Below, piece after piece: positions 19,201-64,000 of a DNA stretch of 64,000 nt (position 1 is the first letter of the stretch; the number at the start of each line of letters is the position of its first letter). Below the pieces are notes generated by a model. The model was given only the letters and a program-made list of their open reading frames with translations, had not been told where the DNA came from and did not search any database. Made by a program: the position numbers and the translations under genes. The DNA comes from Raillietiella orientalis (Eukaryota), in assembly GCA_036172245.1 (NCBI GenBank), contig JAYWIR010000003.1, forward strand, positions 6,758,001 to 6,822,000, written 5' to 3'.

Positions 19201-19566
19201 CACAAATGCTAGCTTGTTAAATCGTTTCACGTTGCTCTTTCTTTTTCTTTGTTTCGTTTTTTTGGAAGTTAAGTGTAAATGTAACAAATTGGTGTAACTA
19301 CCAGTAAAATCTTGACTCACCAATACTTTTTTCATAAATGGACGAGCAAATCATAAATAAACTTGATCTTGCATTATAAATTGCATTATAAATTTCTTTC
19401 AAGAAAGAATCTTTCCTGCTTTAATTTTGTAAACCTATGAAGAATTGAAGTTTAATGAAAGTACATTCTATCATTGTCTTTAAAAAAATTGTTAATAACT
19501 TGATGTTTTTGGGATTTTGTTACGATTTTTTTGATTTTTTGTGCTTTTAGAAACAAGAATAGCAGG

Positions 19567-29586: not shown

Positions 29587-29894
29587 CTTGACAAGAAAAG
29601 AGCTATGGTTTGCACAGAAAGAGATAGATCTGATCTCCATATGAACAAGCGAAAATCTCTGTGTTTAAAAATCTGCTGCTTGAACATCTGATGGAAGCTT
29701 AGATATGTGCAAGCCAACTCGCATCATGTGCTGCTAATCAGTATTTTCAAGGAAAACGTATCTGAAGCAAACTCTAGTTTTGTCTGTATGGAAAAGCCTT
29801 TCTGTTTTCCCAATGATTACATCAAACACATACAAAAATACTTTGCACATTGTTGGGGGACTGCATTATAGAAATATCTTCACAAAAGTTAGTG

Positions 29895-30851
29895 TTAATG
29901 AGGCAATTCTACAGAGACAAAATGTTTAAGCCTTTCCAGATATTGATAATGGCACTCTACATCGTTATGTCCTGCTCCCTGATAAATAAAAAATACATAA
30001 GCAATAGAATCTTTCTCTCTGTTTTTGCTTACTTCGACCCAAAGAGGCTCCACAGTCCGAGGGCACTGCTCGTAAAATGCCAACCCATGGGAAAAGTCAA
30101 TAACCTCATCCTCAGTACCATGGATGACCAGTACAGGGGATGTCATTTTTGTGACCTTATCAATACTGCATACTAAACATGCAAAAACATTACACGTTTT
30201 TCCTCACCTGGGGAAGGCATCACAACACCAAGTTCTACGAGTACCTGGGCAGGCCACTCGCATTCCTGACATAAGAGGGGAATGGAGTACAACAGCAGCA
30301 GCATGCAGCCGAGAGGCCAAATCTACTGTGGGGACAGTGCCAATGCTCTGCCCATACAATATAACATGCTCTGGAGAGACTTTGTAGCGCACTCGGAGAG
30401 ACTGCCAAGCAGCATCAATGTCTGCATATAAATTCTTCTCCGAAGGACGGCCCGAGCTTTGCCCGTAACCTGAGTAATCATAGCCAAGAACATTGCAGCC
30501 CATTCGGTTTCCCAGCCCCACAAGGAAGCCAGTCATTTGTCCTAGGTCAACTGCATTGCCATGGGAGAAAAGCAATGTGTAGCGGGTCTGGGGATCAGGA
30601 CAGTGGACATATAGACAAGCTACACGATTGCCACGTGATGTGCAGGCAAAAAATGCATCTACATTTGCACGCTCTTTCTCAGATATATGCCAGTCAATGC
30701 CTTCTGCCAAGTTGAGCACATAATGGTCACCTTCATGTACCAGTGAGTATGTAGGAGCAGGAGGTAAAAATGCCAACTTAGCAGCAATCCGTGAGGGGCA
30801 GGGTGGGCAACAAAACAAACAACACAGCTCACTAAAGCTGAAGCCATTCAT
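29895..30851 (-). CDS. ABHD17: Alpha/beta hydrolase domain-containing protein 17 (depalmitoylase), 3 coding exons
   Basis: Exons 30851-30208, 30165-30033 and 29978-29895; introns 42 and 54 nt, GT-AG. N-terminus [37 protein letters not shown], nucleophile GQSIG, HGTEDEV (Asp), GAGHND (His). Confidence 0.96.
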
Positions 30852-32110
30852 GGTAGGTCCAAGCAAAGGGCATGCAGAATTATCCTCCTCAATCACCCAG
30901 TAACGTTCCTGATAGTGATGATAATTCCAGATGAGCACATTAAGATGCCAAACATCACTTACATGGTGGCTGCACCAACTCCCCATGCACGCAATAGCTG
31001 GTCAAAAAGGCCACATCAGTTAAGAGACCATACACCTATTGTGTATAATACATGAGAATAAAAAGAACAAATGAAACGGGAATACGAGAATCACAAAATC
31101 CTGTAAAACATTATGGACAGGTTTAACATTCAATCTACCAATTATTACTGCATTATGTGGCATTGAGCTTGTACAGTTGCAATGAATCATATTGTAACAA
31201 TCACATTTTACGAAATATGATATAACGATGTTTTTTTAAAGGGAAGTACACACACACTTTCAAGACTTGAATACTCTGATAATATTTATGATTTACAAAC
31301 ATTCACACACAATTCTAAATAAGTGACAGTTGTAACATTGTTATTTTTCATTTCTGGTGATGGAATCCACATATTCATCAGCAGAGGGAATTATAAAAAA
31401 TGCTTCCAAGAATTTGACAATAATAGGTGATTCCATCCTGTCACTTTTCATACAAGCAAATGTTCCAAAACCAAAAACGAAATGCCTAATTTAAAAAGTG
31501 AAAGGAGATGACCAATGAGTATCCACTTTGTTGGTGTGTTAAGACACCTAGGCAAAAGATTCATTCAAATGTCAAGTATTTGTTACTACATTTCCAAACA
31601 TCTCAAACTTACTATTTGATGATGCACATGGAAAAGTGAGCAAAATGAAATTCGTGATTCTAGTTACTCTTCCTTAAAATGGCTGTTGAGATGCATCAGA
31701 GGAAATTTACGAACGGAATCATAGATTCTATAATGCTAAAGACAGATTCATATGCCTGCAGGTTCTAGCACAGTCAAAGTAATACAAACATGTATAAAGA
31801 CGTTGTAGATTGTCGAGTTGCAGCAAAGAAACAGCAAAGCCACAAAAAACCAAATGAACAACCGCTAAAATTAGAAACAAAATTCTCTTTGATAAAAAGA
31901 CAAAGGATATCACTTACATTGCACACTCCAACAAGGATCTTATCTGTAAAAATCTACTTTGTAAAGGTTTCCACTGAAAGAAGAGTAAAATAATGCAAGC
32001 AAACTCCACAAACAAAGGAACTTATGTCCTGGAAAGAGTCAGGTCTACAACCAATGCAGCAATTAAATCCATTCATAACTCCTTATAATTCAAATTAAAT
32101 GTAATACACT

Positions 32111-32134
32111 CACACACACACACACACACACACA
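32111..32134 (+). repeat. (CA)12 microsatellite
   Basis: cacacacacacacacacacacaca. Confidence 0.9.
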
Positions 32135-35100
32135 AAAAAAACGTAGTTTCAAACTAAAATAATCTCTGGAGCACATTCGTTTTATAGTGAACATCCGAAA
32201 ACTGGTCTTGAATTTTTATTCACCGTGTTTTGATGCTGATCAGTAATCCTATGCTAGCCACACTTGACTGAACGTAGCCAGTTGCAAACCAAAACAAATC
32301 TTACTGAAACGAAGTCTTACTAAACTCTGAACTCCGCCAACTGACTAAACTAAACAGCATAAAAGCTTGCATTCACTTTGCATACTGCACATTGGTTTTT
32401 TTTTTTTTTTTTTCTCCCAGACCAGGAGGCAGTGCAATCAACAGGATCATGTTATCACAAGATACCAAAACCTCAACCTCTGGCTCTGCACCAACAACTT
32501 TTTAGTGCTTCCATTCAAACATGGGTTGTGAAATATTCTTATTAAAACACGGCCCGGCTTCCTGGTACGAATTTCCGTTAACATCACCTCCTCGTACTGT
32601 CAAAACTGCTTGCAAAGTCCAGTGAGGCATGTTATTCTTAGCCAAAAAAAAAAAAAGGGGGGGAACCAAAAAAAAAAAAAAAAAAAACATACGAGTGCAT
32701 CAGAAACTTATGCTACTCCAAGAAGCTGGCTTTGGGATGAAATCTGAGAGATCCATTCCATAGGGTTTCGACGCCTGCACAATGAACTTGAACGTGAGAT
32801 ACACCCCATTTAGCATTGCACCGCATCCACACACGGGAACGACGTGAAGAATAACGAATCACCACCTCGTTCACAACCACATGCAATGTACCGAGGAAAA
32901 AAAAAAAAAAGAAGTTTTCCTTTTTTTTTTTTTTCTCGAAATGCATCAGAGAAGCAGCAAAAGTCACATAAGAGTACCGCGTTTCGAAGGCAGCAGCAGC
33001 ATTCAACTTGAAATTCGTGTCGACGGCCCGACATTCAAACGCTTCGCCCTCAAGGGACTTTGAGGGCTTTCTTTTTTTTTTTTTTTTTCCTCTCGAAACG
33101 AGTGATGAGGGGGTGGGGTGGGGTGGGAAAGGCCACATCAAACGAAAACGAAACAAACAAAGGACAACCGAAAACCAAAGTCGGAGGGAGGGGTAAACTT
33201 ACTCGAAACCACGAATAATATGCCACTCGCCGGAGTGTTCGGAGGGCTCCCGGACACGGTGTTCCAGCAGCCGGGCCGCTTCCGGAATGGAACGATGGAT
33301 GCACTTTCTTTCCTCTTCCCCACACTCGAAGTCGTTGCAACGATTGAAGTTTAACAGGAATCAGGGCCGAGGAAGTTTCTTAAGTGGGGACGAAAGGGCG
33401 GAGGGGGGGGGGGGGGAAACATTGGTTCGAAGGGGGGAGAAGGAGAGGACTCCATCTGGGCAGTGAGGCATCTGCACGCGAAACTACGAAATCAAAATCG
33501 TTTTCCAGGGAGCACCTTGTTGCTCAACAAACACTTTGCTCTTGAGAGCAGCTGCTACTTTTCACGAAGCTCTGCGGCAGCACTCTCTGTGAAAATGAGG
33601 GGAAGGGGAGGAGCAGGGAGAGGAGGAGGACACGAGGAGATCGGCCGACGTGTGCCGCTGTCGCACTCCATCGAGTCCGTGCACTCAAACACCCATCCAC
33701 GTGCGAATGTCCAACACTGTACAGGGAAACGAGACTATTCTCAGGTTGTGCAGAGTTTCACGCGAATTGGTCTGGACAAACAAACAAAAACACATGGCTC
33801 CTCTTCCCCACCCTCCCCCACCCCCTTCCTCCCCTACATCAACCATTTCACTCATTTTCATTTAGTCCGCAACGGCTCCAGCTCCCACAGAACAGGGCGA
33901 TAGGGCAACAGACACGCAGGATCCCCCCAAAATTCTTTTTCCCGAAAGGGGTAAACGCAAACGGAAGCAGCAACAACGAACCGTGGTCTCCAATCTCACA
34001 CAGTGCACGAAGAGTCACAAAGATGAGTGTATTATGAGAAAACAGTTCGAACTAGGCGTGCAAGAAAAATAAAAACAAAAAATGGGGTGCCGGGGGGGGG
34101 GGAGGGGGAAGAGGTAGTTCCTGGCATCGTAAATCTCTGAGGTAATTTCCGGAATCAACCGACAAGTCTATACGGTGATACCGAATCATTTGGAATTTCC
34201 GAATTCTGGAAGTGAAGTGGGAACCATTCCGTGAACTGCACAGAGAACTTTTCACTGTCCACGTAGAATTGAGAAGACACGTTGCGAGTTTAAAGGATAC
34301 GAAGCATGAAGACAACTGTACATCTATCATCTCATCTGAGCAGTCCCATCAATAATTTTTGATGATTTATCAACAGATACAATCCAGTGCATGCATCCAT
34401 CTCTCTCAGACCTGTCATCACTGAATCGAACGCTCCATAGTGAAATTTCTCGATCAGTCAAATCGAGGTTTCCTTCTACATCATTTTGATGGCAGTTTTG
34501 CTACGACGACAGCAGCTCTCCCAGTATTCTTAGCACTCAAGGTACGTCACCCAAGTTCAGTTCTCAAGGGTTATATTTTTCCATACTCCATAGTTGTCTT
34601 AATCTGCTCATCGCTTTCCTTGCGAATTGCAAATCCTCGTCTCGAAAGGATATCTCGAGCAGCAAGGATGGAGGTGTATACCCTTGGGCTGTACTTCGCC
34701 AGAATCGGAGTTGCCTTGAGCAAGCCCCAGTGAGTTGAGAAGGCCGATGCTGCCCGGTTACTCGTCGTCTACACCGAGCACGATTGTGTGCTCGCATCGA
34801 GATGCGTGTTTCCCCACCTCGTATCAAGACCGGCGTTCCGAACAGGAAGCAGCGAATGAAGGCGCACGGAAAAGTTGCTGCATTTTCCGTGCATACGCAG
34901 CAGACGTCTCACGAGCAGGAACGTGGGAGAGATGGTCTCTGCTTCGAAGAATTCGCTTTTCTGCGAATCCTGAAGCTGAGAGGTCAATGCACTCGGATGC
35001 AAGAACACGAAGAGGAATCGTGGAACGAACGGAAGGAGTAGATGCAACACCTTCATTCCCAGCGCAGCGTGAGTGTTGATCGAGACAAAGTCGACTTTTG

Positions 35101-39760: not shown

Positions 39761-40759
39761 GCTCCCTTCTTTCCCTCAGGAGGCAGCAGGAAGCGGTGTT
39801 GCTCCTCGTTTTGCATTGCCCTTCCTCCCCTCTCCCTCACGTAGTGCACGCCTGCGGCGCCTTCACCCTGTTTCGATGAGGCATTTCAAGTTTTCAACTA
39901 GCAATAATCGCGCCTCCCTTTCGTTCAGCAGCCGCGATACTGCCCGTATGCAAGGAAGTCAAGTGGACCACGTGGACCGGCGGATCCATGGAAAGGAAGA
40001 CCACCGAGATGCTCAGGCCAGCTGCACGGAAGGGCAGGTTTTGGGGTAGCGGATGAGGGGTCAACAAATACACGCATGAGCGAAAGGGCGGAAGGAGCAG
40101 GGGTCCCCGGTTACTCCCGCCACGCCACGCCGCAGCTTGCTCGCGATGCAGGCAGAGTCCCCCAAAGGCCCTTTGACCGCGTTCCTCATCCCTGCGGTGT
40201 CGAGGCGCCCAGACCCTCTTCCCTGCTGGAGCGACGCCCCAGGACACCGCGGGCCTCCCGACGAAGGGCTCTCTCGAAGGGAGGACGGAACTGCAAGGTC
40301 GGGCGACCGGGGAAGCAGGCGAAAGACCTCCCCGCGTGAAGCAGCTCCGCAGCATCTCTTCCGGGGTTCGTCGGGTCGAGACAGGGCCGCCGCGAAGGGC
40401 GTTTGTGCGCTCCACTAAGGTCACGGCAGCCAGGCAGCAGGTGCGTGGGAGTGTCCGGCTGCCTCCCTGTAGCGAGCCCTGGGAGGCACCGCTCCTCGTT
40501 CAGAGCAAAGTCTCTTCTCGGTGCCGCGGGTCCTGAAGAGGAGGGGGGCGCGGGGCTCTCGCTGTCGAGGTCCGACGCAGCCGTCCTTGGTGATCCTCCT
40601 CCTCAATGAGGCCGCGTCCGAGCAGTTCTTGCCGCGTGACCCCGTGTCGGGGTGCCGCGGGGCGGTTTGACCGTGAGCCTTTAGCAGCGGTCTCAGGCGG
40701 CGCGTGGGAGGTCGGAGCAGGGTAGTCCAGGTAAGAAAGCGCCCGCTCCAAGGCTGTTC

Positions 40760-42100
40760 CCTCAGGTAATGGTGGGGATGTATCTCGGGGGATTCGGATT
40801 TTCCCGTTCTCCGGCGCTCCCGGCTGTGGGAGCGTCTAGGGCTTTGCCGCTTCCGACGTCGTGGTCACCCATGGCGGAGAAATCCTCCACCCCGCGTGGG
40901 GGGCGCACAGAGTCCGTCTTCTCAGTCTCGCAATTCCCTGGGAAACCGTGGCGACGAAGTGCAAAGTTTTTCTTGGGGGCGGGAACGCTCCGCGCGACCA
41001 GCTGATCCCGGAGCGTCCCCTGTTCCCAGGGAACCAAATACATCTTCCTGGGGAACGTCGGCGAGAGCAAGCGTGACGGCTCCGGGAAATGCGCTGAGCG
41101 ATCCGCAGGGTCAGATGGACCGACGGTAGATGCAGAGAATCCCATTAGCCTTCGGCGCGCGTACGCAAGCATTCCCCTGCCCGGCGTTGCCACCCATCGA
41201 AAGGCAATGAACTCACAAAGGTGGTCGGTGGGTGGTGGTTAGAGCGCGTGTGGTCCTGCTACGCCGTTCACGTGAGGAACCTGCCTAGGTGCCCATACGA
41301 AGGCCGGCGAGGTTGCCTCGGCAACGGGAGGGAAGGGAGAGGGGGGGGGGAGCAAACAAACAAACAAACAAGGAAAAGCAAAAACAAATTCCGCGGGGGT
41401 ACGGGATGGGATCCCATTGGGGACCGTCCTCTGCGTCCTTCCTAGGATGCCGGCAAGGTGCTGCCGCCGCATGCTGTCCGGGTGGTGCCATCTCGCTGCT
41501 CGTCGCAGGAAGCGCAGGGACGGATCGGACGGCGTTCTTCCCGTCTCGCCCTCTTCCGGGGTCTCTCCAGGCCACCGCGACCTCTCGAAGGTAGCGGGAG
41601 AGCTCGCAGCGGAAGCGGCCGACCGCGCTGCTTCCCGCACCGGGAGGAGTCTGAACCCATCCCCGCGGTTGGCTACTGATATGTGGGGGGATCGCGACAA
41701 ATATGGGTCCCCAATGGAACGTTCGAGAGTGGACAAATGGCGCGGAAACAACGGAGGAACCGATCGACGCAGGGGAGTGGCCGCCGCCGCTGCGCTCGCG
41801 GACTTGGGAGTAGAGGATGGGGGTAGGGATGTGGCTGAGGATGATGATGGGGTAAGAGCAGAGGTGGAGCTGAGGGTGAGAGTTTAATGTGAGGGTAGGG
41901 GTAGGAGTAGGGGGGTAGGAGGACTAAGGATAGGGTGGGGATGGGGATGAGGATGTAAGGCAGGGGTGGGGAGCTGAGGACGGGGTGAAACTGAGGATGA
42001 GGGTGGGATAAGGGTAGGTGATGATAGGGTAGCAGTGGGGATGAGGGTGTGGTAAGGATAAAGTCAGGGAAGAGAGTTGGGGTTGGGATGAATACGATCC
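40760..42100 (-). pseudogene. Inverted copy of the ankyrin-remnant family
   Basis: Minus-strand ETGRTPSDPSLRFLRRAARWHHPDSMRRQHLAG (~41550-41447). The reverse complement of 41740-41850 matches + strand 45320-45420. Confidence 0.45.
41810..42090 (+). repeat. G-rich degenerate hexamer tandem repeat (GGGGAT/GAGGGT/GAGGAT-like)
   Basis: ~280 nt nearly lacking C, with 6-nt periodicity; a shorter complementary C-rich version lies at 45240-45340. Confidence 0.8.
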
Positions 42101-43199
42101 GAAGCGGGGAGGGGGGGGCAGAGATCTTTTCTCTTTGGTTACTCCCTCGACTCAGCCTCGGCTTCAAGTCCGTCGCTACATCCCGATACCAACTGGCGGT
42201 TCGTCTCCTCATCTCCCCGTTTTCCTCCTTCTTCCGCGGCGAAGAACCGGGGCGCCTGTTGGTGCGCGTCTCCCTGTCAGCCGCGCAGCCGAAAGCGAGG
42301 GGCTCCCTTCCTTCCGCCAGCGCCGCCTTCGAAAGTCGACCGACTGCGGACCCCTCCCCTCCCTGCTCTGCCAGTCGGTTGCCCTCAGGGAGCAGGGCTG
42401 GGTGTCCCGCGGTGGCCGAACTGCTCTGGCTGTCCGCCGCGGAAGGTGGTGGAGTCACCCCAGCGCGCGAGCTCGGGCGCGCAGCGCCCCCTAGTCGCCA
42501 TCCCTGCAGGAGAAAGATGGCAGCAGCCCACCGGCGAGGAAGGGGAAGCTCCTGTGAGAATCGCGGGCAGCAAACAGCCAGCCGACCACAAATACCCCGC
42601 CGTGTAACCTCAAACGGAATTGGCGCTGGGTCCGTTCCAGGAAGACGGTTTTGGGACTCGCTCGCGACTCTCCTCCTCCTCCCCTTGCTTTTACGTTTGC
42701 CCCGCTTCCGGAAATGCCAAAGAACGGAAGAAGGGTTTTCTGAGAATTGCCCCGTGGGGCAGTGGGAGGTCCCGAGTCCTGCTGAGGAACCTGCGTGCCC
42801 CGAGTAGGGCTGGAGGTCTCGACTTCCTCACGCTGGAGCGTATGGAGCGTCGGTTCCTGCCGAGAAGACTTGCCCTGGGTCGAAGAACACCGGACGTCAC
42901 AGCATCCCTCTTTCACGAAGTCAACCTCTCCCAAAGACGACATCCTTGCCTGAGCGCCTCTTCGCGGAGAGAGCGTCCGGCTGTCGAGGGTTGACTTTGT
43001 TCCTCGTCGGCGGCCACCGAACTCCGGTCCAGTCCGGGTGTCGGCTCCGAGAGACGGTCACTTTGGTGAAAGGGGGGGGGGATTCTTGGATCTCCCGTTT
43101 CCCCTCGAACTCCAGCGCCTGGTTCCGGGAAGCAGTTCTCCCGTGGGGAAGGATGAACCTCGAGAGCCGGGGTAATGGCTCAGCCTGAGGCACTCCAGA

Positions 43200-44510: not shown

Positions 44511-45299
44511 GGAACGCCACAAGAAGAGGACGCGATGGAAGGGGTGCCATCCGCTAGTTGGGGGTCTTCGTGAGGATCGCCACGAGATGGTCCCACTTAA
44601 GGCAACACACACGCAACGAACTTGCGTCATCCTAGAAAGGACTCAAAGGGCGTCTAGTAGCAAGCAGGGATCCCTTCCTGAATTGCCTTCTCCTCCTCCA
44701 CCCCACCCCACCTCCCCAAAAAATTCGTGCCCTTTTTTGGGGGGCTTGTCATCACTCCCCCTGCCCTTCGCTGCCGATGAGATCCGCGCCGGTCTGCGTA
44801 CTGGCAACCGGGAAGGTTCCCTGCATGTCAGGAAGTGGCAGGACGGACAGTCCCACCCGGTAACGCCGGGTGAAAGAAATCATGTGGTCTCCTACCCTGG
44901 GTTGAGCCGCCAGTAATCCCTCGAGAGGACCACGTGCGGTCCCCCAGTGTTCCTGGATGGCCGTGCCCTCCCCTTCGAGTGGCGGGTGTCAGCATGCTTG
45001 CGGCGCGGCGCGGTGGACTCCTTTGCAACGCCCGCCGGCATCACTGGACCAGGGAAGGAGAGTAGGTTCAAACTGCCGTAGGTGCGGAGGAGGAGAAGGA
45101 ATCACCACCCCACACCTGCTTGCGTGCTGTGCTGCCTCCTTCCGATCCCTATGCGGAATGAAGTGACGCGCACAAAAAAGTCGAGGCTGAGAGAGGAACC
45201 ACGAGGATATTCCTCCCCCTTTCATATGGGATCGTTTTCATCCACCTCCACCGCCCCAATCTTCACCCCAACCCCGACTCATCCCTCATCCCCATCCCA

Positions 45300-48200
45300 C
45301 TTCCACCCTCGCCCCATCCCTAACCCTCATCCACACCCTCCGCTCCCGAATCCACGAGAGCGGCAGCAGAGGCGACCGCTTCCCTGCCTCTCCCTGTTTC
45401 TCTGCTGTTTCCTCACCCTTCTCCCACGACCGGAGACCCCTGGCTGCCATAAAAAGGGACGTTGCGAGTCGCGTGCGTGTGAAGACGCGGAGAGCGAGGA
45501 GCGGGGAAATTTTACGAGCGCACGCGCGCGCACGCATGCAAGTCCTAGGAATGCGGTCTTCCAGTTCACGAAGGACTCCGGGAGGAGACCTGAACCTTCT
45601 CGATCACGACACGGCGGAGAGCTGTCCAGGGAGGAACGCTGCCCCTCCCCGCCCTCCGATCAGCGGATCAGCGGAAGAGCAAAGGCGTCCATCTCTCAGG
45701 CCAGCTCCTGCTTGCACGCAGAGACCGGTCCTCTCTGCGCCTCGCCCAGGAGGGAGGACGGCGTTTCGTGGCCACAAGAGGGCGGTCGGGCAGGTCACCA
45801 GCGCGCCTCAGGGGACATCCCTTTCTTCTGTCCCTTCTCGCGCGCCCGCCAACGGGAAGCCATCTTCGAGGCTTGCTGACATCACAGGGGAACGGACATC
45901 TCACCCGAGTCCACCTGATGCGCCCTTCCTGGTCCTGCCGCCACCCTCGCAACCAGAGATGTGCCGCGGGTGATCCGTCCTACCGGCCGGAATCGACTGA
46001 GCGTGTGCGTTTTCCTCGCAGCCATCGCAGAAGCGTGCGAGGAGCGCTGAGACGACGACACATCGGGGCCCACCCGCTGGCGCCAGCGCCGACCCGATGT
46101 CGACGAAGAGCTTTCAGTCGGTGCTTGCCATCGCGGCTCAGACGGGACACGCGACGACCCCTTGGCGTGCTCACGGGAGCCGGGCACGCTGCGGACCTCC
46201 AACCAACGCCTAGCAGCGGGAACCTTGCCGGCTCTCCGGGAGCACCGGGAGTGTTCGTGGGCGCACTCGGCTGGGGGAAGCGACTGCCCGCAATCACGGA
46301 ACGCCAATCCCTTGGGATCCCTGGGAATCGAGGGGTGCGACGCTATCCAGATGGTGGCGGAGGCATCGGGCTCTAAAGAGGAGCTCTTATGCCCCCCCAA
46401 TCCCCCATTCCGCGCGCGCGCGCAGCTCGAGAGGGCGCATGCAAGTTGCCACCGTCTCCGGCGGCGTAGGGGGAAACAGGTTGGTCGTCCCGATGAAGGA
46501 CACGACCGGGAAAGCGAGAGAAAGAGTCGCCCCGCGTGAAGCAGCGCCGCAGCAGCTCTTCCGGGGCGTCCTTCTGCCTTCGAACAGGACTCGTCAGCAT
46601 CCTGGACAGCGTGTAGAGGACCCTTCGAGCGAATACAATCCCTTCCCCGGTCCCTCCTCCCCAGATAAACTCTCCCTCTCCCTTTTTTCAATTGGTTTTG
46701 TTGTTTTCCCTTCCTCTTTTTCCCTCCCCTTCGCCGCAGGAACGGACCTTGCCCGTCTTCGTACCGCTTCCGGCAGGTTCCGAGCACGTGGCAGACCCCA
46801 ATGCGCTGACCACCTTGTCCTTATTGTGATCCTGTCTTTTATTGTTATTTCAAGGGTAGGCGCCCAGGTCAAGCCGGGACGAAAAACCTGGGAAGCGGAC
46901 TGTGGGAACTCGCTAGCACCCCTGCAGGGATACGTGGTGACGTGCCGCAACGAAGAGCTCCCTTCTGTCCCTTCCCGTTCAGTCAGTTTGGTCTTCTTTG
47001 GTTTTCTTTCGTTCCCCCTGGCAGTCCGCCAACCGAATCTAAGCAGGTGCATCGAACGTATTAGGACGGAGAGAGCCACCGACCACATCCGTATGTTTCT
47101 TACTCTTTGTGGTAAACGCCCCGGCGTGACCGAATGGCGATGGAACCATCTGTAGTGTCGATAGCAACCGCACCGTCACGCCTCTTCGGCCAAGCGATGG
47201 AACGACTTGCTGTGGCCGATAACCACAACACACGAAGGACGCTGCCCAGCCGTGGAGGACGGCGAGAATTCTCAACGAATCACGGCACAGCAGCGCAGGT
47301 GAGTCGGCTGCAACTAGGGCGCTCGCGTCGAGCGGACGAAGCCAAGGGCGAGAGGTCTCCCAGGGATACGGAAATCTTTGGGAGTTCCTCTGTCGCGCTT
47401 CTTTCCTTCCAGCTTCCATTTCTTTCTTTTGGTTCCCCACGTGCTAAAGAACCGTCTACCTGGGAGCTCACCAAGCCCTTTGATACGCCAGCGTCTCCGA
47501 GGAGGCGCGGGGGCACCTCTCGGAGCGGACGCCGTCGCCTCGGAGACGGCGCGAAGGCACATCTGCGGAATGGACTTGCTTCGGCGGCACATACACTAAA
47601 TTTGACATTGTCCGTGCCACCCGGAGCGCGCGTAACTCTTCAATTTAGAGAGTGACCCTGGAGGGACTACCTTATGAATCCGGGAAGTGCTCCGACGAAG
47701 GAGTCCGTTCTTCTCACGCTTGGGAGGGAACCCCTAAGGGAACCTCTCCTTCATTCTCTCTCCGGAGAGATCCCCCGGAGGGGCCACTCCTTGTTTCTTC
47801 CCCGAAAGGACCTTGGAAAGGATCCGCTCCAGGAATTATTTTCATCTGTAGAGCTCCCGTAAGGGGATCGCTCCTTATTCCCTCCGCTGACGACAACCCC
47901 GAAGAAACGCTCCCAAATTTCTCCGAGAGGCGCTCCCCGGAGGAAGCAGAGCACTTTTGCCACTATGGAGAGCCAACCCCCCCCCCTCTGCCCCCGATGG
48001 GGGTGTCAACCAGCTCCACGGCACGAGATGGAGGGTCCACCCCCAGAGGGAGGGAAGTCTCCACCGTCGCAACCCCGAAGGGAACCGTCGCTCCTTGATT
48101 CCTGGAAAGACCCCAGACTTTGACTTTTAACCCTGGCCAGTAAGCGAGGGCATCTGGATGATTTTTCCAGTGCCGCACCGGAAGCCAACCAGCGTCATCC

Positions 48201-53217: not shown

Positions 53218-56200
53218 ATGGAAAGTACGTCTTCTCCTGCTCCTCCCGTATCGAGTCCCCCCTCCTCCCCCCATATCTGCTTGCACCTGAGTCAACCGCT
53301 GGCGCAACGGCACATGCGCCAGAGCGCAGCTGCCTCCTCCAGCCGGGAAGGGGAAGGAGGGGAGGGGAGGGGAGGGGCGGGAGAAAGGAGGGGGAGGACG
53401 CACACGGAGAGAGAGAGTGAGAGAGGCAGGGAGAAGCGCGAGGAGAGCTGCATGGCGGCTCGCAGACTCCAGTCGACGTGGATCAGCGAGCGCGGCATGG
53501 ACGGATGTGCTCCCGCCGTGGTCGCCGCCAGGTCCCTCAACCCCTTTGACGAGGACGAGGACGATGGCGAGCACGAGTCGCAGAAGGAGGAAGGGGAAAG
53601 CACTCCCCCGGAGCGGTCGTCTTCGCCTCCAGGCCAGGATCAGACGGGAGCGGGGGCGTCTGACAGGAGAGCAGACGTCCCCATAAAGGACAAGCTGAGG
53701 AGGTTCAAGGAGATGATCCTCCTGCGGCGGGTCGCGTCGCCGTCCCGGGAAGACTCGGGATCTCCCCAGAGGGCGCCCGACAGCGAGGACGGGGAAAGCT
53801 GGCCCAGCCCTCCTCCTTCATACCGCCAAGGAGAGGGCCGTGGGGCCTCCCCGGCGCCGTCTCGCTCCCACGAGGAGACCTCGGGCAAGCCGGAAGTCAA
53901 GGTAACTCGCTTCTTGTGTGGAGGAGGAGGAAAAGGAAAAAAAGGGGGATTCGTGGTGGAGGTGGTGGACCCGAAGGAGGAGGAGGTGGAGCAAAGGCGG
54001 GAGGCGGAGGCGGCGAGGGAGGAGGACGAAGAGGAAGGCGAAGAAGGGGAGGAGGAGGACGGGGAGCAGGGGACCCCCGTCCAGCGGAAACCCCTACTGC
54101 CTCCGGTACCCAAGAAGACCCGCAGCTACGTCTGGAGCTCCGTCCTGACTGTCGTCCTCATCGAGGGACGCGACGTCCGAGCCGCCGACGCGGACGGGGT
54201 CAGCGGCGCGTACTCCCCCGCCCCTGACCCGCGCGTCTACGTCAAGTTCAGGTGTCGGTTTTGGTGTTCGCCCTCGCCCAACCCCCCCCCCCCTACCTTA
54301 CCCCCGTGACTCCTCCCCCAACCTCGCGCTCTTAACCCCTGCACCCCATCCCCGACCCCCGGGAAACGACAGCCACAAAGGTCCGCGCTCCTTCCAGGCT
54401 GGGCAACGAGAAGTACAAGAGCCGGCCAGCCGCCCGCAGCTGCCACCCGACCTGGCGCGAGCAGTTCGACTTGCACTTCTACCGCGACACTCCGTCCCTG
54501 CTGGAGCTTGGAGTCTGGGACGCTGACCGCCCCCGGGGATACATCGGCGGATGCAAGGTTGAACTGGAGCGCTTTCAGCGGGAGAAGACGCACCAAGTGG
54601 AGCTGCCCCTGGAGGAAGGGACGGGCAGGATCTCCCTGCTGCTCACCGTGAGCGGCATCGCAGAGGAAGGGGTCGCGTCCGACCTGTCGAGCTACGTCGA
54701 CGACCCTGCGAGGCGGGCCGAGGTCCGGGAGCGTTACGTGAGTCTCTCTCCTTCCTTCCCCCCGGGGCGTTCTTCACCACCCTTCCCTTTCTTCCTTTCC
54801 TTCCCTCCCAGCAGTCCCTCCTGCACACCTTCTCGGACATGCAAGACGTAGGTCAGCTGACGGTCAAGGTCTTCCGCGCGCGGGGACTCGCTGCTGCCGA
54901 CCTCAGCGGGCGCTCGGACCCCTTCTGCGTTCTCGAGCTGGTCAACTACCGGGTGCAGACCCACACGGAGTACCGCACCCTCAACCCCTGCTGGGACAGG
55001 ATCTTCACCTTGTGAGTGCCCTCCGGGAGGAAAGAGGTTGGAGGGAGGGAGGAAGGGAGCAAGCCCGGGTCAGACGCTCGCTTGCTTGCTCGGTCCGGGA
55101 CGCATCCGCAGCCCTCCCCCTTTTTCCAGCCAGGTGAAGGACGTGCACGTCTGCCTGGACATCAGCGTCTACGACGAGGACCGGGACGGCAAGTTCGACT
55201 TCCTGGGCCGAGTCCTGGTGCCTTTGTACCGCATCCTGAACGGGAAGAAGAGGTGGTACGCGCTGAAGGACAGGAAGCTCTGCCGTCGGGCCAAAGGCTC
55301 CAATCCGCAGATCCTCCTGGAGATGGAGCTCGTGTTCAACCCTGTGAGGGAAAGGGTGTGGGGTCTGGGGAACATGCATGCGCGACCCTGCTCCAGATCC
55401 GGGCGATGGTGCGCACATTCCGCCCAAAGGAGTGCAAGTACGTACAGCCGGAGGTGCGCTTCAAGCGGCAGCTGTTCCTCCGCAACGTGGCGCGCGTCCG
55501 GAACTTCGCCCCTTTCTTTGTGGATGTGGGACGCTACATCAAGTGAGTCGCTGCTCTTTCCCGTTCCCCCCTTTGTCTTCTCCCCCCCTTTCCCCCTTTC
55601 GCCGCTTCCCTGCTACCCCTCTGTCTCCACCGGCGTCTTCTTTTCCGTCCTCAGAAGCTGCTTCCAGTGGGAATCCACCGTCCGGAGCACGATGGCCTTT
55701 GTCCTGTTCTTGACGGCGACATACTTCTTCCAGCCCTACATGCTGCCGCTCCTGCTGCTGCTTCTCTACCTCAAGAACTACATCGTCAGTATATCCCGCC
55801 GGAGAGGGGCGCCCCCGTTACGCGCGCGCGCGCGCGCGCGTACCGCCACCGTCACCCTTTCACCCTTTTACCAGGTGTGGAGCGTGAACGGCTGGATGGA
55901 GGAAGACAGGAGAGAGTTGTGGGAGGACGAGGATGACGACGCCGAGGACGAAAAGGGCAAAGTAGGTGACCTTCACGCTGGTGAGACGGAGGAGGGGAAC
56001 CGGGGTGGCTCTCCGACGGCCAGGAGGAGAAGAAGTCGCTCAAAGACAAGCTGCAGGCCGTTCAGGACATCACGCTGATGGTGCAGACCAGCATCGGTGA
56101 GGTGGCTTCCCTGGCGGAAAGCTTCATAAAGTTAGTAGCACTCGCTTGCACTGGTGGGAACAGGAAAGGGGTGGTGGAGGAGGAGAGGGTGGTACCAGAA

Positions 56201-57058
56201 AGAGCGGTCAGGAACTGGTGGAGACGAAGCAGTGCCCCCCTTACCTGCATCCCTCCTCTTCCAAGTCAAGTTTGGTTTCCTCGTATTTTTTATTTTTTTT
56301 TGTCCTAGCACGTTTAACTTCACCGTGCCTTTCCTGTCGTACATTGCCATATTCGTCTTGTCCTTGGCCACATTGATCCTCTACTTCGTGCCGCTACGCT
56401 ACCTTGTGATGGCCTGGGGAATCAACAAGTTCTCCAAAAAGCTGCTACGACCGAAGGCAATCCCCAACAACGAGCTCCTGGATTTCTTGTCTCGGGTGCC
56501 GAACAAGGAAGACTTGGTAGGTACAGCATGCTCCGCTCCGCTTCTACCGTCTCTTCTCCCATTCCGTTGCATCCTTGTGCCTCACGCGTGGCACAGCAGT
56601 CCCGAGCTGCTGCCACGAGTAAGGAACGATTCCAGCGCAAGCACGCAGGAGAGCAGGCTGAGGCGCAGGTTCCGCCGCGCAGCATTCGAGCACACGCCGG
56701 GTCGTACCGTTTTGGTATCCCTCGCCTCACCCAAGGACGCTTCTTGCCATCGCGTGGAAAACGAAAGAAGGCACACCCGAAAGCGAGCGATCGCGTGCTG
56801 CCTGTCGAATCAGATTGGAAAGAACCCCCGTTTCGTTTCCTTGGTGCTTCCGAAGATTTACCGCGCTTCTGTACCAAGCAGATCCCGTCTCGTCACAGAG
56901 TCCAGGTTTCGGTGGTCCGGTCGCCGGTCGGACTTCAGTGTACTTTCCTTCACCTCAAACGTGATTCGAATGCGGATGCAGTGGATGCGACACATGTGCT
57001 GCGACCCCCAGTTCCGGTGCTTCCAAGTTCTAATTGCAAGAACTGTTGGTGCAAATAG
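53218..57058 (+). CDS. MCTP: Multiple C2 and transmembrane domain-containing protein (MCTP); 5' start and last exon uncertain
   Basis: Spliced model: 53218-54251 (possible in-frame intron 53902-53961), 54398-54737, 54815-55011, 55130-55343, 55397-55542, 55655-55784, 55875-55961, 56024-56130, 56309-56516, then a tentative last exon 56597-57058. It gives C2 domains ([14 protein letters not shown]...[12 protein letters not shown]...[39 protein letters not shown]...[13 protein letters not shown]), two TM regions, and FNFTVPFLS...[17 protein letters not shown]...[12 protein letters not shown]. Confidence 0.93.
55821..55840. repeat. (CG)10 dinucleotide repeat in an MCTP intron
   Basis: ta-cgcgcgcgcgcgcgcgcgcg-ta, a perfect 24-nt palindrome at 55819-55842. 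Confidence 0.95.
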
Positions 57059-58694
57059 GGACTTCGAGCGATCTTGTATTTATACCATGGATGCATTTAT
57101 CGTATTTATACGACAACGGGAGCACCGGAAGTCCTCATCAATTCTGGAGGCGGTTCGATAATCAATGACACGAAACCATTCGGGCGCGCTCTCAGTAATG
57201 ATGGAACGTTATTCGTCATCCGTTTTAATTACCCGAAAAGCTTCCTTGGTGTCGTGTGGAGTCCGTTTCGAAATTTTCCTGGGTGTTACGAAGGAACGTT
57301 CCAACTCGAACTTTAGCAAACTTGCACCTAACGATGGCTATTCTCTTCCTCTACTAAGAATTCGTTTCGTACACATTTTTGATTTTTTAAGAAAATATTC
57401 GTATAGTGCTTCATGTATATGAATTCGTTCCATATACTTTTAAGTAGCGTTTCTCTCTCTCTCTCTCTCTTTTTTTTTTTTAAAAAAAAAGCGCCACTTG
57501 AAAGCGCGAAAATTTCAAGCGATTGATCCTTGCTGAGGTGATGTGTACGGTGGCACCACTGACCCCAAAGGGCAACACGTTCGCTGGAAGAGCCACGTCT
57601 CACGTTTTCTCTTCAGGCTTGAATGCCTTTCGGCATTCAAGCCTGAAGAGAAGGAAAACTCACAGGAAACCTCGCACATGTTCGTTCTGTATGTTCATTT
57701 ATCAAACGTGCAAGAACAAGCATCCCGTCAACAGCAACAAGCCTCGGGAGATTCATTAAGGTTGCTGCTGCACGTGGCCGCTTATTAAGATCTCAGCAAA
57801 TTCTGTTCGATCATCTGGAATGCAGAGGAACCATCATCGCAGCAGACCCCGAAGGGCGAGTGCAGTAAGGAGTCCCGAAACATGGGCGACGAATTCACCA
57901 AATTCACCACAAAGTTTTCTCCATAGACGGAATAGGGATATGGGCGAAAATATCCATGAGATCTGTAATTAGGTGCCTTGCATCCAATTAGATAACGAAT
58001 GCTGAGCTTCACGCTCATGATGACTCATCCCTCAGAGTGTTACAGCGTGAATGTATCACTTCACACAAGTTCACTAACTTCCTACAGTGGTGCCCAGCCT
58101 TGGTTTTATCTTCTTCCCTGCTCATCTCATAATTATCTTTTGTTACACAGGAAGTGTTCGAACTTTACATTCCTTAGTAGTAGGTAAATAAAATCACAGC
58201 GGTCAATTTCAGCAGTCGTGTTTGGCGTAAGGAACACTGAAGACAAAACAGGTCTTTCAAGACACGGAAGCCGTGGCTAACAGATAATGCAGTTCCCTCG
58301 AACGTATGTGGGGATGCTTGAGGGAATTCGATGTGGAACGTGACCAGTTATATGATCCTAATTATAAAAAGGAATGGGGATGTATGCTCAATGGTATTTT
58401 TTCTTCTTTTAGGTAAAATATAGGGACCTGCGTCCAACACCCTTGAGTGATGCAGATAAACGGAAAGCTGGGAAGCACAAGTCTGGCGGCAGTTTCATGG
58501 GATAAATTGCAACGACAGCAGCTGGTGTTGGTGAACAGGTTCCATGGTATCTCAACGGCAAGAGGTGGTGCCATGTATTGAACCCAGTGTCGTAACATTA
58601 ATTATTCCGATTGATTCCAATTGGTTTGTTTTCGTAAGTTGCCTGATTATGCTGATGAAATAAACACAAACATTGGATTTTATAAAATCTATTC

Positions 58695-60593
58695 TCAAAG
58701 TTTGAACGCTTTTCCATGTGCCCTCTCGCCGCTTCCTTTATCACTTTCTGCATAGACTTTCTTCTGAATTTGGGTTTTAACTTTTTCCTGTAACCTCTCA
58801 AAAAATGCTTTGGATGATTTGGGTACTTTTGCTTCCTGTTCTTTTTCCTGGAATCCATTGTCAGTGGCACTGCCTAACGTATGGGCAAGAAAATTACCTG
58901 ATTCTTCGAGGTCTTCTTGGCAATTTGCTTTTTATGACTTCGAAAATAGGCCTGCTGTCTGGCTTTTTTCAGTCGTCTCCGGTGTTGCCTATCTGTTGCA
59001 TCTAATTCACTCTGGCCTTTGATCTCAATGCGTGGCTTAGCTGCAATACATACACTAACACGCACTGAAAGTGAAGAACCCAACCTCGGATTTCTTGAGG
59101 TGCTAATAAAGCAGCATCAGACATGAATACAGGCTGCACTTCTTCAACGGTGACTGCTGGCACATTGCTGACTACTTTGATCTCTGGTGCAGCCTACACT
59201 CCACATATTTCTCCATAACAATACCTTCCAACAACTCACTTGCTTTGGTACAAAATGCAGATTACTTAAGGCATCTAGTTTCCTAAACAAGCTATCCATT
59301 CTCTCATGAATAGCTTTATGTTCTGAGAGTTCTTCTGGTTCCTGCTGAGAAGTCTCCACAGTTTTCTTATATTCTTCTTCGTACACTTGAGCCAGACTGA
59401 GAGTAGGTTTGCTACTATCTAGCTGCAGTCGACGTTTATATTCAGCTGGTACCTCTACAGGTGGCAACCGACGCTGAACATCATCCCAGATCTGGTTCAA
59501 GGCACGCTGTGTAATAAGACGTTCAACTTTGGCACTCAGTTCCTCAGTCATTGCAGGTGCTGCCACAAACCACTGACATTGCCCTTTTTAAATTCATCAA
59601 CTACCTTCACGCCATCCCTGATCAAATTCCAAATGTTCTTCTAGTAGGCTGCACTCAGGTCGTCCTTCTGCTTTCACTTCTCCAATCAACTGCCATGGTT
59701 TGCTAGCAAGATTCTCTTCTTCCTGCTTGGCTATTTCTGCTCTCCATCGAATTTGCTGTTTTTCAAAAGTAGACAGAGGCACAGAATCGTCTTCTCGAGG
59801 ATCCAGCTGTTCTAAGCCACTCTTGGTTTTATCTTTTTCCTGGCTACAGGGGAGATCAAAGAAATCTTGGTAACTTGGATCTTCGCACTGTAAATTTCCA
59901 CATGATGATGTTCTTGATGCCATGAACTCACCTCATCATCTGCATTCTCTTCCAGATCTACACCAGATGAAGAATCTTGTATATTCTCTTCAGCATCCAT
60001 AAATGTTTCCATATCTGCAACATTGAAGAACTTATCTTCGTTAGATAGTCTCTCCTCTAGATCTCCACTTGCATCACAGGATTCATTCTGATTTCCATTA
60101 AGACTAGGTTCCAATGTCTCTCTATCACTAGAATGCATTTCTTCTTCACTGAATTCTTCGGAACTGATGAAGTTATGTAAGAAAGTTTCCTCAGGTTTAT
60201 AAACAGTTGAATTGTCTTCTTCACTCCAAATTTTGTAAGCTTCAGGCCTAAGTAAGTGCTCCTTTTCACTCAGCTGGTTCACTGCTCTAGCCATTTGGTT
60301 AGCAGCACTCTGTTCATGCATTTCTAACTGCTGCCATAGCTGCTCATCATCAAAACCATCCAGCAACAGCTGCTTTAAGGAACCACAGCATTCCCGAACA
60401 TGAAGTGTGTCATACAACTGCTTAATATGCTGTTGAAACTGGGATGCAATGTGTTCCTGAGGTCTGTTCCTGTATAGAGTCACCCAAATTGCTATCTCTT
60501 TTACCTGAGTAGTTTAACTGCTTCCTGAAGCAGCTGACTGACATCCCCCAGAAGATCACCCATCTGCAACACAGGCAATTTATTCTCCATCAT
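58695..60593 (-). CDS. MPHOSPH10: U3 snoRNP protein MPP10 (M-phase phosphoprotein 10), 7 coding exons
   Basis: Exons 60593-60505, 60469-59932, 59887-59605, 59559-59240, 59193-59085, 59040-58898 and 58847-58695. GT-AG introns of 35, 44, 45, 46, 44 and 50 nt all restore frame. Motifs: [38 protein letters not shown]...[40 protein letters not shown]...[17 protein letters not shown]...FKL-stop. Confidence 0.95.
60579..60584 (-). terminator. Candidate UFD1 polyadenylation signal (AATAAA) lying inside MPP10 codons 4-5
   Basis: Minus strand reads TGA AATGTT ATG ATG GAG AAT AAA; the hexamer begins 15 nt after the UFD1 stop. Confidence 0.45.
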
Positions 60594-60599
60594 AACATT

Positions 60600-61517
60600 T
60601 CACCCCTTGTCCCCCACTGTCACACTCTTCTTCCCCTGAGATTGCCTCAGAGTCTGTCCTTTCCCTTGAAATGGCGAAAATTCTTCAACAGCCATTGTTT
60701 TGGAGAATAATGTGGGTTTACGGGCACGAATAAATCTAAGTGTGCCAGGCACATAACTGAAATCTGGAATTCCTCTCTGTGGAGGCGTGCCTACTGGCAG
60801 CTCAGCATCTACACCGTGCTCCTTGCCATCTAGTCTTTCTCCTCGACCACTAAAAGCTTGGAAGCCAGTATGAGGTACTTCCATGACTTCTGTGGTTTCC
60901 ATAATTTCTTCTTCATTTTGAGGGGGAGGAGGAGGGGTTTCTTCATATCCTAAAGGAGGAGCAAATTCCACATGCATATCACACTCAATGATGGCTACAG
61001 CACGCTCAGGCTTGGTATTCAGCACACGCAACTCATAGGCACGGTCATTATAAATCAAAGCCAACACATCACCCTCTGTCAGACATGCAAATCGGCGCAA
61101 GCAGCGTTCTAGAACTGCTTTGGGATCACTAATTTCGAGAAAATCCTGAGAGAATGGTTGGAATCGTGAGAAAGTGGCCACAGGAAGTGACACACTCTCA
61201 ACTGTCACCAGATCTCCTTCAGCCAACAATAAATTGCGCATCATCCAGTGAGGCAGATATGCTCTCCCTTCATCTGCCACAAACTCCAGAACTCCTGCAT
61301 GAGTGTGTCGTCCTGCTGAGACATGGGTGAGTCGAAACAACATTGGATAAGCTATATTCAGGCGAGTTAGTTGGTCCAATGCTGATGGTGGCAGAATAAT
61401 TTTTCCTCCTTGCTCCACATCATGTCGTTCATTGCCTGGCAGCATGGACACAGAAAAGCATCGATACTGGGTACAAAAAGGACGCGAGGACATGGGGAAT
61501 ACATTAAAACTGAACAT
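60600..61517 (-). CDS. UFD1: Ubiquitin fusion degradation protein 1 (p97/VCP cofactor), single coding exon, ~305 aa
   Basis: MFSFNVF...[48 protein letters not shown]...[13 protein letters not shown]...[19 protein letters not shown] boxes FSGRGERL and [16 protein letters not shown]...LRFIR. ATG 61517 lies just downstream of a TTTTCAG acceptor. Confidence 0.97.
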
Positions 61518-63374
61518 ACTGAGCTGAAAATATAAAGATGAGCCAAACAATGTCTCCTCAAAGGTGTACACATATATTACAACTTTTCAGAATCCCCTAA
61601 ACAACATAGTTTAAGTCCTAATTACAAATTAAGTCATAATTACCAAGCTTACTACTTATTTAAACTAAGCTTGCTAATTAAAATCACACGATGGTTTACT
61701 GTTACTCAAAGCATTATAAACGAAAAATTAACAAAATTTAAGTATTTTTTTACTAGAGTACGTGGAGGCAGATACATAATGCCAACAGTATTTACACTTC
61801 GAAATATGCAATTGTTAACACGTCGTACTGGCCTGAACACAACTGAAAGCAAATTACACAGATTTTTATTTTAAGAATAAATCACTTCATACGAGATAAA
61901 CGCATTTATGGTATTCTCAAACAAACTACAACACACAGTTACTCAGTTTGGATATTATTTAAATATGCAGTTAGATGTTATATCATTCACTTGCATATAA
62001 CTTTGGGATTGCATACACACTAAGCATATTACAAGCACAACAATACACGTAAAACGTAATAGGCACAAAATGTATTTGCTCGGTTGATAACCACTTGGTC
62101 ATTCACTTTTCACAAAAAACAAACTAATCAATTACTGCAATCGATACGAATATCTCCTTCACTCTCATCACACATTCAGAAGTCCAAATTACTGAATGAT
62201 TCTTAGAAAATTTCCAGCTACTTAATAAAAATCTTTAAGGCACTGTTAAGAAAAATATTTATTATAATAATTACGTTTTTCTTATGTTCTTATATTTTCT
62301 CTGGCTTTAACTTCACAGATTTTGATACAACTTTATTAGTTTCCAATGATTTTAAAACCCATCCTTCGACGTCCAAAGAATTGCCACCTTTTTTTTTATT
62401 ACTGTCATTAAGAAATTATTTGAAGATCATAGTTGAAAGCAGAAAACTATTCAGCTGAAGAGATCTTGCTAGGTCTCATTTACAGAATCGCAAAAATTAA
62501 TTACATCTTAAGAACTCTCTGTCTGATAGTTAAAGTTAAGCACAAATAGCGTTTTCCCTTAAAAAGAAAACAATAGATCCAATTTCCATAGCTGAAGATT
62601 TTTAATAAATCATTATTTTATCACAAAAAAATACATTTACATATTTCTAACTCGTTAAAAGTTTCAGATTTAAATTACTTAAAATAATGATATCTAGAAA
62701 TGAGATAGATTTTTATCCTCATGTTAAAACCAATATTCTGGTCACTCACAATGATTAATTTGTTATTTATGAAAATTGTTGATTTCTTCGAAACCATTTA
62801 AAATATATCGACCAGTAACCAAGTGAAGTTAACTGACAATTAAGGGAAAATGGCCTATTTGAATGCATCTACTCCTGTTAATCGCAAACTTTTCCTCTTC
62901 ATAGCAGTCTTTGAAGATTTTATTATACTTGTGTCATTCTTCTTATTCTATGAATGGGTTAAGATACAAGTTGAAATGAATTCAAAACGTTTAGGCAGTT
63001 TCAGCATTGTATAGTTAAAATGACCAATACTCAGCAATTTATTCACTACTTATGTGTTTGTTATTTTCTTCTATGATGGCGAATGCTCTGAATTGTGTCT
63101 GAAGGCGTATTATATTATTTGCAATTGTTTTAATACCTACTATGTCCCTGCAACCAGATTACATTCAGGATGCATTGCATTGTGTGTTTTCTATCATAAT
63201 ACTTTAGTTTGAAGCAGTTGGTCATCTTTGCAGTCGAAGACTTTTCATGATCTGGCACCATCTTTTTGATTGTTCATCCTTTCCCCATCTTCCTGTATCC
63301 CCACAAGAATCCACAAATGGGTACAGTCCTGCTGACCACTCAAAAAATCACGCAAAAGCACGACTTCAGGTTTT

Positions 63375-63600
63375 TTGTCGATACACACCTCTGACCTGCT
63401 GTTAATTAAGTCTAAAAACGCTTCGAACGACTCCACTGGGATGGATGTGGACAGAAGGCAAAACATACAGTCCAAATATGCCGCCTCGACCGGCGTGCAA
63501 ATGTATGAGCTCCGTAAGATCAGAATTTACCAATGCACATTCAGCACTAACCCAAAGATACTGAACAGTACAGGGTGCGAACTCTCCGCACAGCCACCTT
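63375..63600 (+). pseudogene. Decayed ankyrin-repeat remnant
   Basis: GMDVDRRQNIQSKYAASTG...NPKILNSTG. Confidence 0.3.
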
Positions 63601-64000
63601 ACATGTGATGATTGTTAAAACAAGGTTCCATAAGAGCATTGATACAGATAGAGTCCCGAAAGACTAGCCAAGCGTTGCGGGAAGCCAACGCCACGTTGCA
63701 GGTGAAGTTAAATCCTTGCGAAGAGCAGAACTCTCTTTATGTTTCGTCTCGTCGCCGGGTAGGCGGCACTGGATGCCACCCAATAGGAGGTCTTCTCCTG
63801 GACCCAGGCGCTTCTCAGGTTCAGACTGGGACACAGGGCGAGTCTGCGGGCCGGGTCCTGGGCCCCGCCAGCTCCCACAAAGAGAGAAGCCTCCTCTTCG
63901 CGGGCGCGTCGGCGCTGGTGCCGTCTCCGGCACGTAGCGAAGGCTACGGAATCCCGGCACGAGGGCGAAGGCGAGGGAGACGTTCCCATCCGCTGTCCGA

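Follow-up and report, generated by a model that had tools for sequence, protein, structure and literature searches.

How are two adjacent genes expressed when the stop codon of one lies only a few nucleotides (nt) from the start codon of the next? The question is raised by UFD1 and MPP10, which lie head to tail on the minus strand of a 64-kb stretch of the Raillietiella orientalis genome (GenBank assembly GCA_036172245.1, contig JAYWIR010000003.1, forward-strand positions 6,758,001 to 6,822,000; hereafter the window, numbered from its first letter). The two coding sequences are joined by 6 nt if MPP10 begins at the ATG at 60593, or by 36 nt if it begins at the ATG at 60563. We tentatively favour, at slightly below an even chance, a single transcription unit whose precursor RNA would be resolved with spliced-leader trans-splicing at MPP10.

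The UFD1-MPP10 gene pair

The product of UFD1 matches two Pfam families, UFD1_N1 (PF03152, 1.4e-39) and UFD1_N2 (PF24842, 8.3e-31), and aligns with animal UFD1 proteins of 296-310 amino acids at 57-63% identity across 97% of its length, the best matches being mostly from arthropods. Because both N-terminal subdomains are present and the identity extends over nearly the whole protein, the predicted UFD1 is a complete family member of normal length. The MPP10 model (544 residues when joined) has six GT..AG introns of 35, 44, 45, 46, 44 and 50 nt. Three of its exons match the Mpp10 profile (PF04006) in order, at profile positions 7-203, 265-342 and 344-456, and in BLAST alignments the joined model is collinear with ten homologues up to residue 488-530, depending on the homologue. 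An exhaustive search with exon 4 alone as query found 900 relatives at E values up to 0.001; a word-index search with exon 4, also at longer lengths, gave no homologue at E values up to 1e-8.

Re-reading of the sequence upheld every coordinate in the initial annotation of the locus, namely the UFD1 stop, both candidate MPP10 start codons, the mini-open reading frame between the genes, the AATAAA and the six splice junctions downstream of the UFD1 stop. Its premise that MPP10 uses the exon ending at 60505 is likewise borne out, as the junction from there to 60469 across a 35-nt GT..AG intron keeps the frame into the Mpp10 match. Five genes were recognised in the window (UPF1, an ABHD17-like gene, a C2-domain MCTP-like gene, MPP10 and UFD1), and the other gaps between them are at least 2 kb. 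Since all other gaps are of that size, the gap of 6-36 nt is an outlier rather than a sign of general compaction.

A hexamer and a splice acceptor in the spacer

Downstream of the UFD1 stop the minus strand reads AATGTT ATG ATG GAG AAT AAA TTG CCT GTG TTG CAG ATG GGT. Its first six bases, AATGTT (60599-60594), part the UFD1 TGA from the ATG at 60593, and the ATG at 60590 comes next. The UFD1 stop is in the same frame as MPP10 exon 1 and ATG 60593, for which the chance expectation is one in three. UFD1 stop, AATAAA hexamer and 3′ splice acceptor follow one another in the order expected of an operon resolved by a spliced leader.

The coding sequences of UFD1, UPF1 and MPP10, 5,862 nt in all, contain no AATAAA, against seven copies in 7,001 nt of the minus strand at 57-64 kb. 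The first AATAAA after the stop codon comes at 15 nt in UFD1, compared with 2,400 nt in MPP10, 928 nt in UPF1 and 1,039 nt in the ABHD17-like gene. The acceptor at 60564 is a YAG (Y, pyrimidine) with 7 of 11 pyrimidines, where the six MPP10 intron acceptors have only 4-6 of 11, and such an acceptor abuts 17 of the 1,997 ATGs in the window (0.85%). The acceptor is notable by position, not by strength. Hexamer and acceptor both exceed what chance would easily give.

Both would be coincidences (0.85% for the acceptor, and about 3% for a hexamer within 31 positions at one per 1,000 nt) if UFD1 and MPP10 were independent, overlapping units, with an MPP10 promoter inside the UFD1 coding sequence and a UFD1 3′ end that overlaps the MPP10 5′ untranslated region (UTR) or exon 1. 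The gap of 6-36 nt has no room for a separate promoter, as the initial annotation had stated, so that any independent promoter would have to lie within UFD1. A 5′ UTR begun there would contain the mini-open reading frame at 60598-60590 that overlaps both upstream ATGs; the second of these, at 60590, nevertheless has a good context for initiation (A at -3 and G at +4), and the N-terminal lengths of homologues fit 60593 or 60590 slightly better than 60563. The rest of the window is gene-sparse, implying no pressure toward overlap. Taking these points together, we regard two independent units as quite unlikely.

In the operon that we favour, a promoter upstream of UFD1 would give rise to a precursor RNA across both genes, a co-transcription that we infer from the layout of the junction. 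The UFD1 mRNA would have its poly(A) site set by the AAUAAA at 60584-60579, with cleavage about 13-20 nt later, near the CA at 60566-60565, so that roughly 35 nt would remain as 3′ UTR. The MPP10 mRNA would receive a short spliced leader, presumed to exist in this animal, joined in trans at the acceptor UUGCCUGUGUUGCAG (60578-60564), and would be translated from the AUG at 60563. With the poly(A) site touching the acceptor, the two processing events would be rivals for a handful of bases or use them in common, as happens in operons that lack intercistronic DNA. The initial annotation had set three options side by side; the sequence of hexamer, acceptor and ATG in the spacer favours its processed or trans-spliced precursor, a dicistronic mRNA with termination and reinitiation is the least likely of the three, and its internal promoter keeps the low probability given above.

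The UFD1 protein has a branch length of 1.03, against a median of 0.1, in a quickly built tree of the query and 72 of the 133 homologues listed, where it has no supported neighbour; the insects, the arachnids, the copepods and the amphioxus-mammal group each cluster without it. Chaetognaths, tunicates, flatworms, nematodes, rotifers and copepods were weighed as possible affinities, and none gained confirmation. Long branches are usual for lineages that practise trans-splicing. UFD1 and MPP10 are both housekeeping genes, and their proteins are not functionally linked. A full-text literature search found no paper joining UFD1 and MPP10 (MPHOSPH10) as an operon or polycistron.

Evidence against trans-splicing, and the MPP10 start codon

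Several observations weigh against this reading. In an Rfam scan of the window no family, spliced-leader RNA included, reached its gathering score, and a permissive RNA-family scan of the same 64 kb gave six weak matches, none of them a leader RNA. An acceptor of equal quality is found at 46 of 458 AGs in coding sequence (10%). Three GTs, at distances of 40, 54 and 60 nt ahead of the acceptor, fit the intron size range here and could make it a cis acceptor; they also resemble real donors that MPP10 uses (GTGAAA against GTAAAA, and GTGGGG against GTTGGG). An Mpp10 domain was absent from all 13 long UFD1 homologues, a weak negative because long proteins crowd the word index. A metagenome scan with UFD1 gave no synteny; it returned four loci of 38-57% identity, none of them close, three on short contigs and one of 13 kb (L002) that was not inspected for MPP10.

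DNA composition adds a further point. The ratio of observed to expected CpG (CpG o/e) is 0.34-0.49 in the bodies of the four AT-moderate genes and 0.91 in a GC-rich block at 36-52 kb, and the depleted gene bodies suggest mosaic gene-body DNA methylation. To our knowledge nematodes, flatworms, rotifers and Oikopleura lack DNA methylation, which would leave fewer candidate trans-splicing lineages; taken as a lead, the mosaic pattern may fit tunicates better than these four.

The remaining points concern the start codon. A start at 60563 would give MPP10 an unusually short N-terminus: only one of 65 homologues has no residue N-terminal of the corresponding alignment column and only five of the 65 have one or none, the median being 6. 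These 65 aligned N-termini were picked from 150 for a Met start and the conserved motif, which excluded 85 sequences that were fragmentary or did not have the motif. By BLAST offsets, the long form exceeds six of seven N-terminally matched homologues by 0-6 residues and falls 7 residues short of the other. The initial annotation had placed the start at 60593, to which the homologue lengths lean slightly, whereas 60563 is the start indicated by the acceptor and the AATAAA. Judged by these signals, the MPP10 start probably lies 30 nt downstream of the one first proposed. For annotation, the start probably belongs at 60563, and UFD1 and MPP10 must not be fused. The coordinates are collected in Table 1.

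Table 1. Coordinates of the UFD1-MPP10 locus, of its junction and of other features in the window
Feature	Position	Strand	Remarks
UFD1 coding sequence	60600-61517	-	single exon; 305 codons plus stop TGA 60602-60600; start ATG 61517; Pfam
Spacer, UFD1 stop to ATG 60563	60564-60599	-	36 nt: 15 nt, then AATAAA, then TTGCCTGTGTTGCAG, then ATG
MPP10 start of the initial annotation	60591-60593	-	first in-frame ATG past UFD1 stop; same frame as UFD1
Mini-open reading frame ATG TTA TGA	60590-60598	-	overlaps ATGs 60593 and 60590; read directly
AATAAA hexamer	60579-60584	-	putative UFD1 poly(A) signal; begins 15 nt past stop; codons 4-5 of long MPP10
3′ splice acceptor TTGCCTGTGTTGCAG	60564-60578	-	abuts ATG 60563; putative MPP10 trans- (or cis-) acceptor; GU-rich element past hexamer
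Proposed MPP10 start ATG	60561-60563	-	residue 11 of long model; proposed from acceptor and hexamer
GTs, possible cis donors to acceptor 60564	60603-60625	-	60603 (40 nt, frame-shifted), 60617 (54 nt, in frame), 60623 (60 nt, in frame), 60625 (62 nt, frame-shifted)
MPP10 exon 1	60505-60593 (from 60593, or from 60563)	-	35-nt intron 60504-60470 restores frame into Pfam Mpp10 match
MPP10 exon 2	59932-60469	-	Pfam, splice model, homologue alignment
MPP10 exon 3	59605-59887	-	Pfam, splice model, homologue alignment
MPP10 exon 4	59240-59559	-	best conserved portion; Pfam, homologue search and alignment
MPP10 exon 5	59085-59193	-	splice model, homologue alignment
MPP10 exon 6	58898-59040	-	splice model, homologue alignment
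MPP10 exon 7	58695-58847	-	includes stop TGA 58697-58695; splice model, homologue alignment
UFD1 acceptor-like site CATCTTTATATTTTCAG	61524-61540	-	6 nt before ATG; 9/11 pyrimidines
CpG-rich stretch	63500-64000	-	GC 0.57, CpG o/e 0.92; donor-like cat/GTAAGG at 63602-63597
UPF1	19567-22893	+	one uninterrupted open reading frame, ~1,108 codons
ABHD17-like gene	29.9-30.85 kb	-	introns ~43 and 56 nt
C2-domain MCTP-like gene	~53.4-56.5 kb (53400-56520)	+	GC 0.63

One mature mRNA or two

The proximity of the UFD1 stop to an in-frame restart codon 6 nt on could also be read as the mark of a true dicistronic mRNA, with translation restarting at the AUGAUG that follows the UGA or with an internal entry site for MPP10. 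There are precedents for dicistronic cellular mRNAs in insects and mammals. Here, however, the upstream open reading frame has 305 codons with many internal ATGs, and a long, ATG-rich upstream frame disfavours both reinitiation and leaky scanning. Nor does the junction have a dedicated structure: its fold of -28 kcal/mol does not surpass that of shuffled sequence (z -0.30), and 72 of 200 shuffles were as stable or more so. The six exon junctions past the UFD1 stop would moreover mark such an mRNA for nonsense-mediated decay (NMD), and the window encodes an intact UPF1. A dicistronic mRNA therefore seems very improbable. The initial annotation had raised the same concern about decay; the six downstream junctions are confirmed, but the concern vanishes under the operon model, because the six MPP10 introns would then sit in a separate mRNA.

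The cis donors in Table 1 invite another alternative, a UFD1-MPP10 fusion protein made by cis-splicing of a 54- or 60-nt intron (from 60617 or 60623 to 60564) or by read-through of the in-frame UGA. Donors are present, the intron lengths suit this genome and the frames agree; the best-looking donor (GTGAAA at 60603, 40 nt), however, leads to a frame-shifted product that ends early. The UFD1 stop looks used, as the protein has 305 residues where its relatives have 296-310 (97% coverage), and the search of the 13 long UFD1 homologues for an Mpp10 domain, described above, also argues against a fusion. The base after the UGA is A, and we know of no read-through context with A in that position. We consider a fusion protein hardly credible.

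That a single mature mRNA yields both proteins by any of these routes, whether by restart after the 305-codon frame or by an in-frame fusion (UGA read-through or the 54-nt intron), is improbable. If true, a cofactor of Cdc48 and a nucleolar factor of ribosome assembly would thereby be linked, and their mRNA would need to escape NMD despite its six downstream junctions.

Acceptors at gene starts and a possible shared first exon

Acceptor-like sequences also precede other start codons in the window. The UFD1 acceptor, TATATTTTCAG, ends 6 nt before its ATG and that of UPF1, GTGCTTTTAG, 16 nt before, each with 9 of 11 pyrimidines; acceptors of such strength lie within 0-16 nt of 46 of the 1,997 ATGs in the window (2.3%). 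Of four gene starts examined, three lie no more than 16 nt from an acceptor, the exception being the ABHD17-like gene, with its nearest at 58 nt. Both UFD1 and UPF1 carry a start-proximal acceptor, and neither has any other intron. An origin of UFD1 as a retrocopy was considered as the cause of the close spacing and rejected, there being no poly(A) remnant past the hexamer and UPF1 being intronless too.

Acceptors before both ATGs, with a hexamer between them, would equally be explained by a shared non-coding first exon that is spliced in cis, alternatively, to 61524 for UFD1 or past UFD1 to 60564 for MPP10. The first intron of MPP10 would in that case contain UFD1, one promoter would serve both genes with no spliced leader, and the UFD1 mRNA would end at the AAUAAA site. 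UFD1 is indeed intronless and sits before the first coding exon of MPP10. A CpG-rich stretch at 63500-64000 contains a good donor-like cat/GTAAGG at 63602, 2.1 kb upstream of the UFD1 acceptor, and we tentatively propose this stretch as a candidate for the promoter and first exon of the unit. The upstream exon and its donor are candidates, however, and the AT-moderate genes, where eight of eight mapped introns measure 35-56 nt, would need exceptional introns of 2 and 3 kb. Longer introns do exist in the C2-domain gene, at roughly 70-170 nt, and the CpG pattern upstream of the ABHD17-like gene (described below) looks as if long first introns occur here; UFD1 and UPF1, otherwise intronless, would each have to retain just one intron in the 5′ UTR. 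We judge a shared first exon unlikely, though it deserves to be taken seriously.

Comparison with known gene pairs

By its sequence, UFD1-MPP10 is a probable further case of the operon without intercistronic DNA, a kind for which sea squirts, arrow worms and nematodes provide established examples. The closest likeness is to the sea squirt Ciona intestinalis, with same-strand abutting genes and an upstream poly(A) site that touches the downstream acceptor (PMC2760879). Ciona operons are mostly dicistronic, their genes abut without intergenic DNA, and the 5′-most gene is single-exon in 60% of them (PMC2760879); intercistronic distances have a median of 1 bp (PMC7986045). The typical Ciona form has a single-exon gene at the 5′ end and a multi-exon gene after it, as in UFD1-MPP10. 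In UFD1-MPP10, unlike the Ciona operons, the leader, the poly(A) site and the precursor are predicted from sequence, and the surroundings are gene-sparse and of uneven G+C content.

A similar architecture, with a poly(A) site and an acceptor that touch, is seen in the SL1-type operons of C. elegans, which are rare. The standard operon in that species has a gap of about 100 nt and a specialised SL2 leader (PMC7986045). The placement of UFD1 in the tree gives no support for a nematode. Oikopleura has tiny introns, many of them lost, and a very compact genome. In operons of O. dioica the intercistronic distance does not exceed 60 bp, and its median is 31-33 bp (PMC7986045). The present window, unlike the Oikopleura genome, has five genes per 64 kb.

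Chaetognaths provide operons without a compact genome and with housekeeping content, as would be the case at this locus. The RP S14-PCNA operon of Spadella cephaloptera has 3 nt between poly(A) site and acceptor, in a genome of 1.05 Gb (PMC2481426). Operons hold 18% of the genes of Paraspadella gotoi, with an enrichment for protein metabolism and housekeeping functions, and the longest Paraspadella operon includes ribosomal-protein, ubiquitin and proteasome-subunit genes (PMC12460157). DNA methylation in P. gotoi is reported to have shifted from gene bodies to transposons (PMC12460157), whereas the gene bodies here are CpG-depleted.

A different precedent, closer to the shared-exon model, would be the cholinergic locus. 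There an intronless VAChT gene lies in the first intron of ChAT (unc-17/cha-1), and the two share a 5′ exon through alternative splicing. The likeness to UFD1-MPP10 is that of an intronless gene ahead of the coding exons of a second gene; unlike the cholinergic locus, UFD1-MPP10 has only a candidate shared exon (donor 63602), and its two proteins are functionally unlinked.

The current understanding of operons would be unchanged by UFD1-MPP10. If the operon reading is correct, the pair would extend the list of animal operons without intercistronic DNA to a fast-evolving lineage whose genome is gene-sparse and patchy in composition, and would add to the chaetognath evidence that such operons are no mere by-product of genome compaction. 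It would also offer a compact test case in which cleavage and polyadenylation meet splicing on the same few bases.

Composition and other features of the window

G+C content across the window is highly uneven, ranging from 0.28 to 0.70 per 500 nt. The window is a compositional mosaic, in which a GC-rich block within about 35000-56500 (0.57-0.70, CpG o/e about 0.9) differs from 19500-23000, 29000-32500 and 58700-61500. Introns also come in two styles within 5 kb of each other, as seen in the MCTP-like gene and in MPP10: those of the former are roughly 70-170 nt long and pyrimidine-rich, and those of MPP10 and the ABHD17-like gene are 35-56 nt long with weak pyrimidine tracts. The gene for UPF1, the NMD helicase, shares the window with the UFD1-MPP10 junction. 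A near-perfect hairpin at 57597-57659 (ttcaggcttgaatgcc...ggcattcaagcctgaag) lies between the convergent MCTP-like and MPP10 genes and gives a weak match (26.8 bits) to a microRNA family.

Upstream of the ABHD17 ATG (31000-33500, minus strand), about 1.6 kb of CpG-depleted sequence is followed by CpG-rich sequence at 32.5-33.5 kb; the pattern looks like a long first intron or an outron from a distant promoter. No tRNA was found in a scan of the window. A 76-nt match to U4 snRNA in the GC-rich block (39882-39957, minus strand) reaches 45.5 bits, just under the gathering score of 46 (E value 5e-07), and may be a truncated copy or pseudogene. The AT-rich sequence at 2501-4500, with a CpG o/e of 0.15-0.40 and no open reading frame that matches Pfam, may be an intron or UTR of a further gene. 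Similar proline/histidine-rich low-complexity runs appear in the translated open reading frames of 41200-42800 and 45000-45900, which suggests a repeated element.

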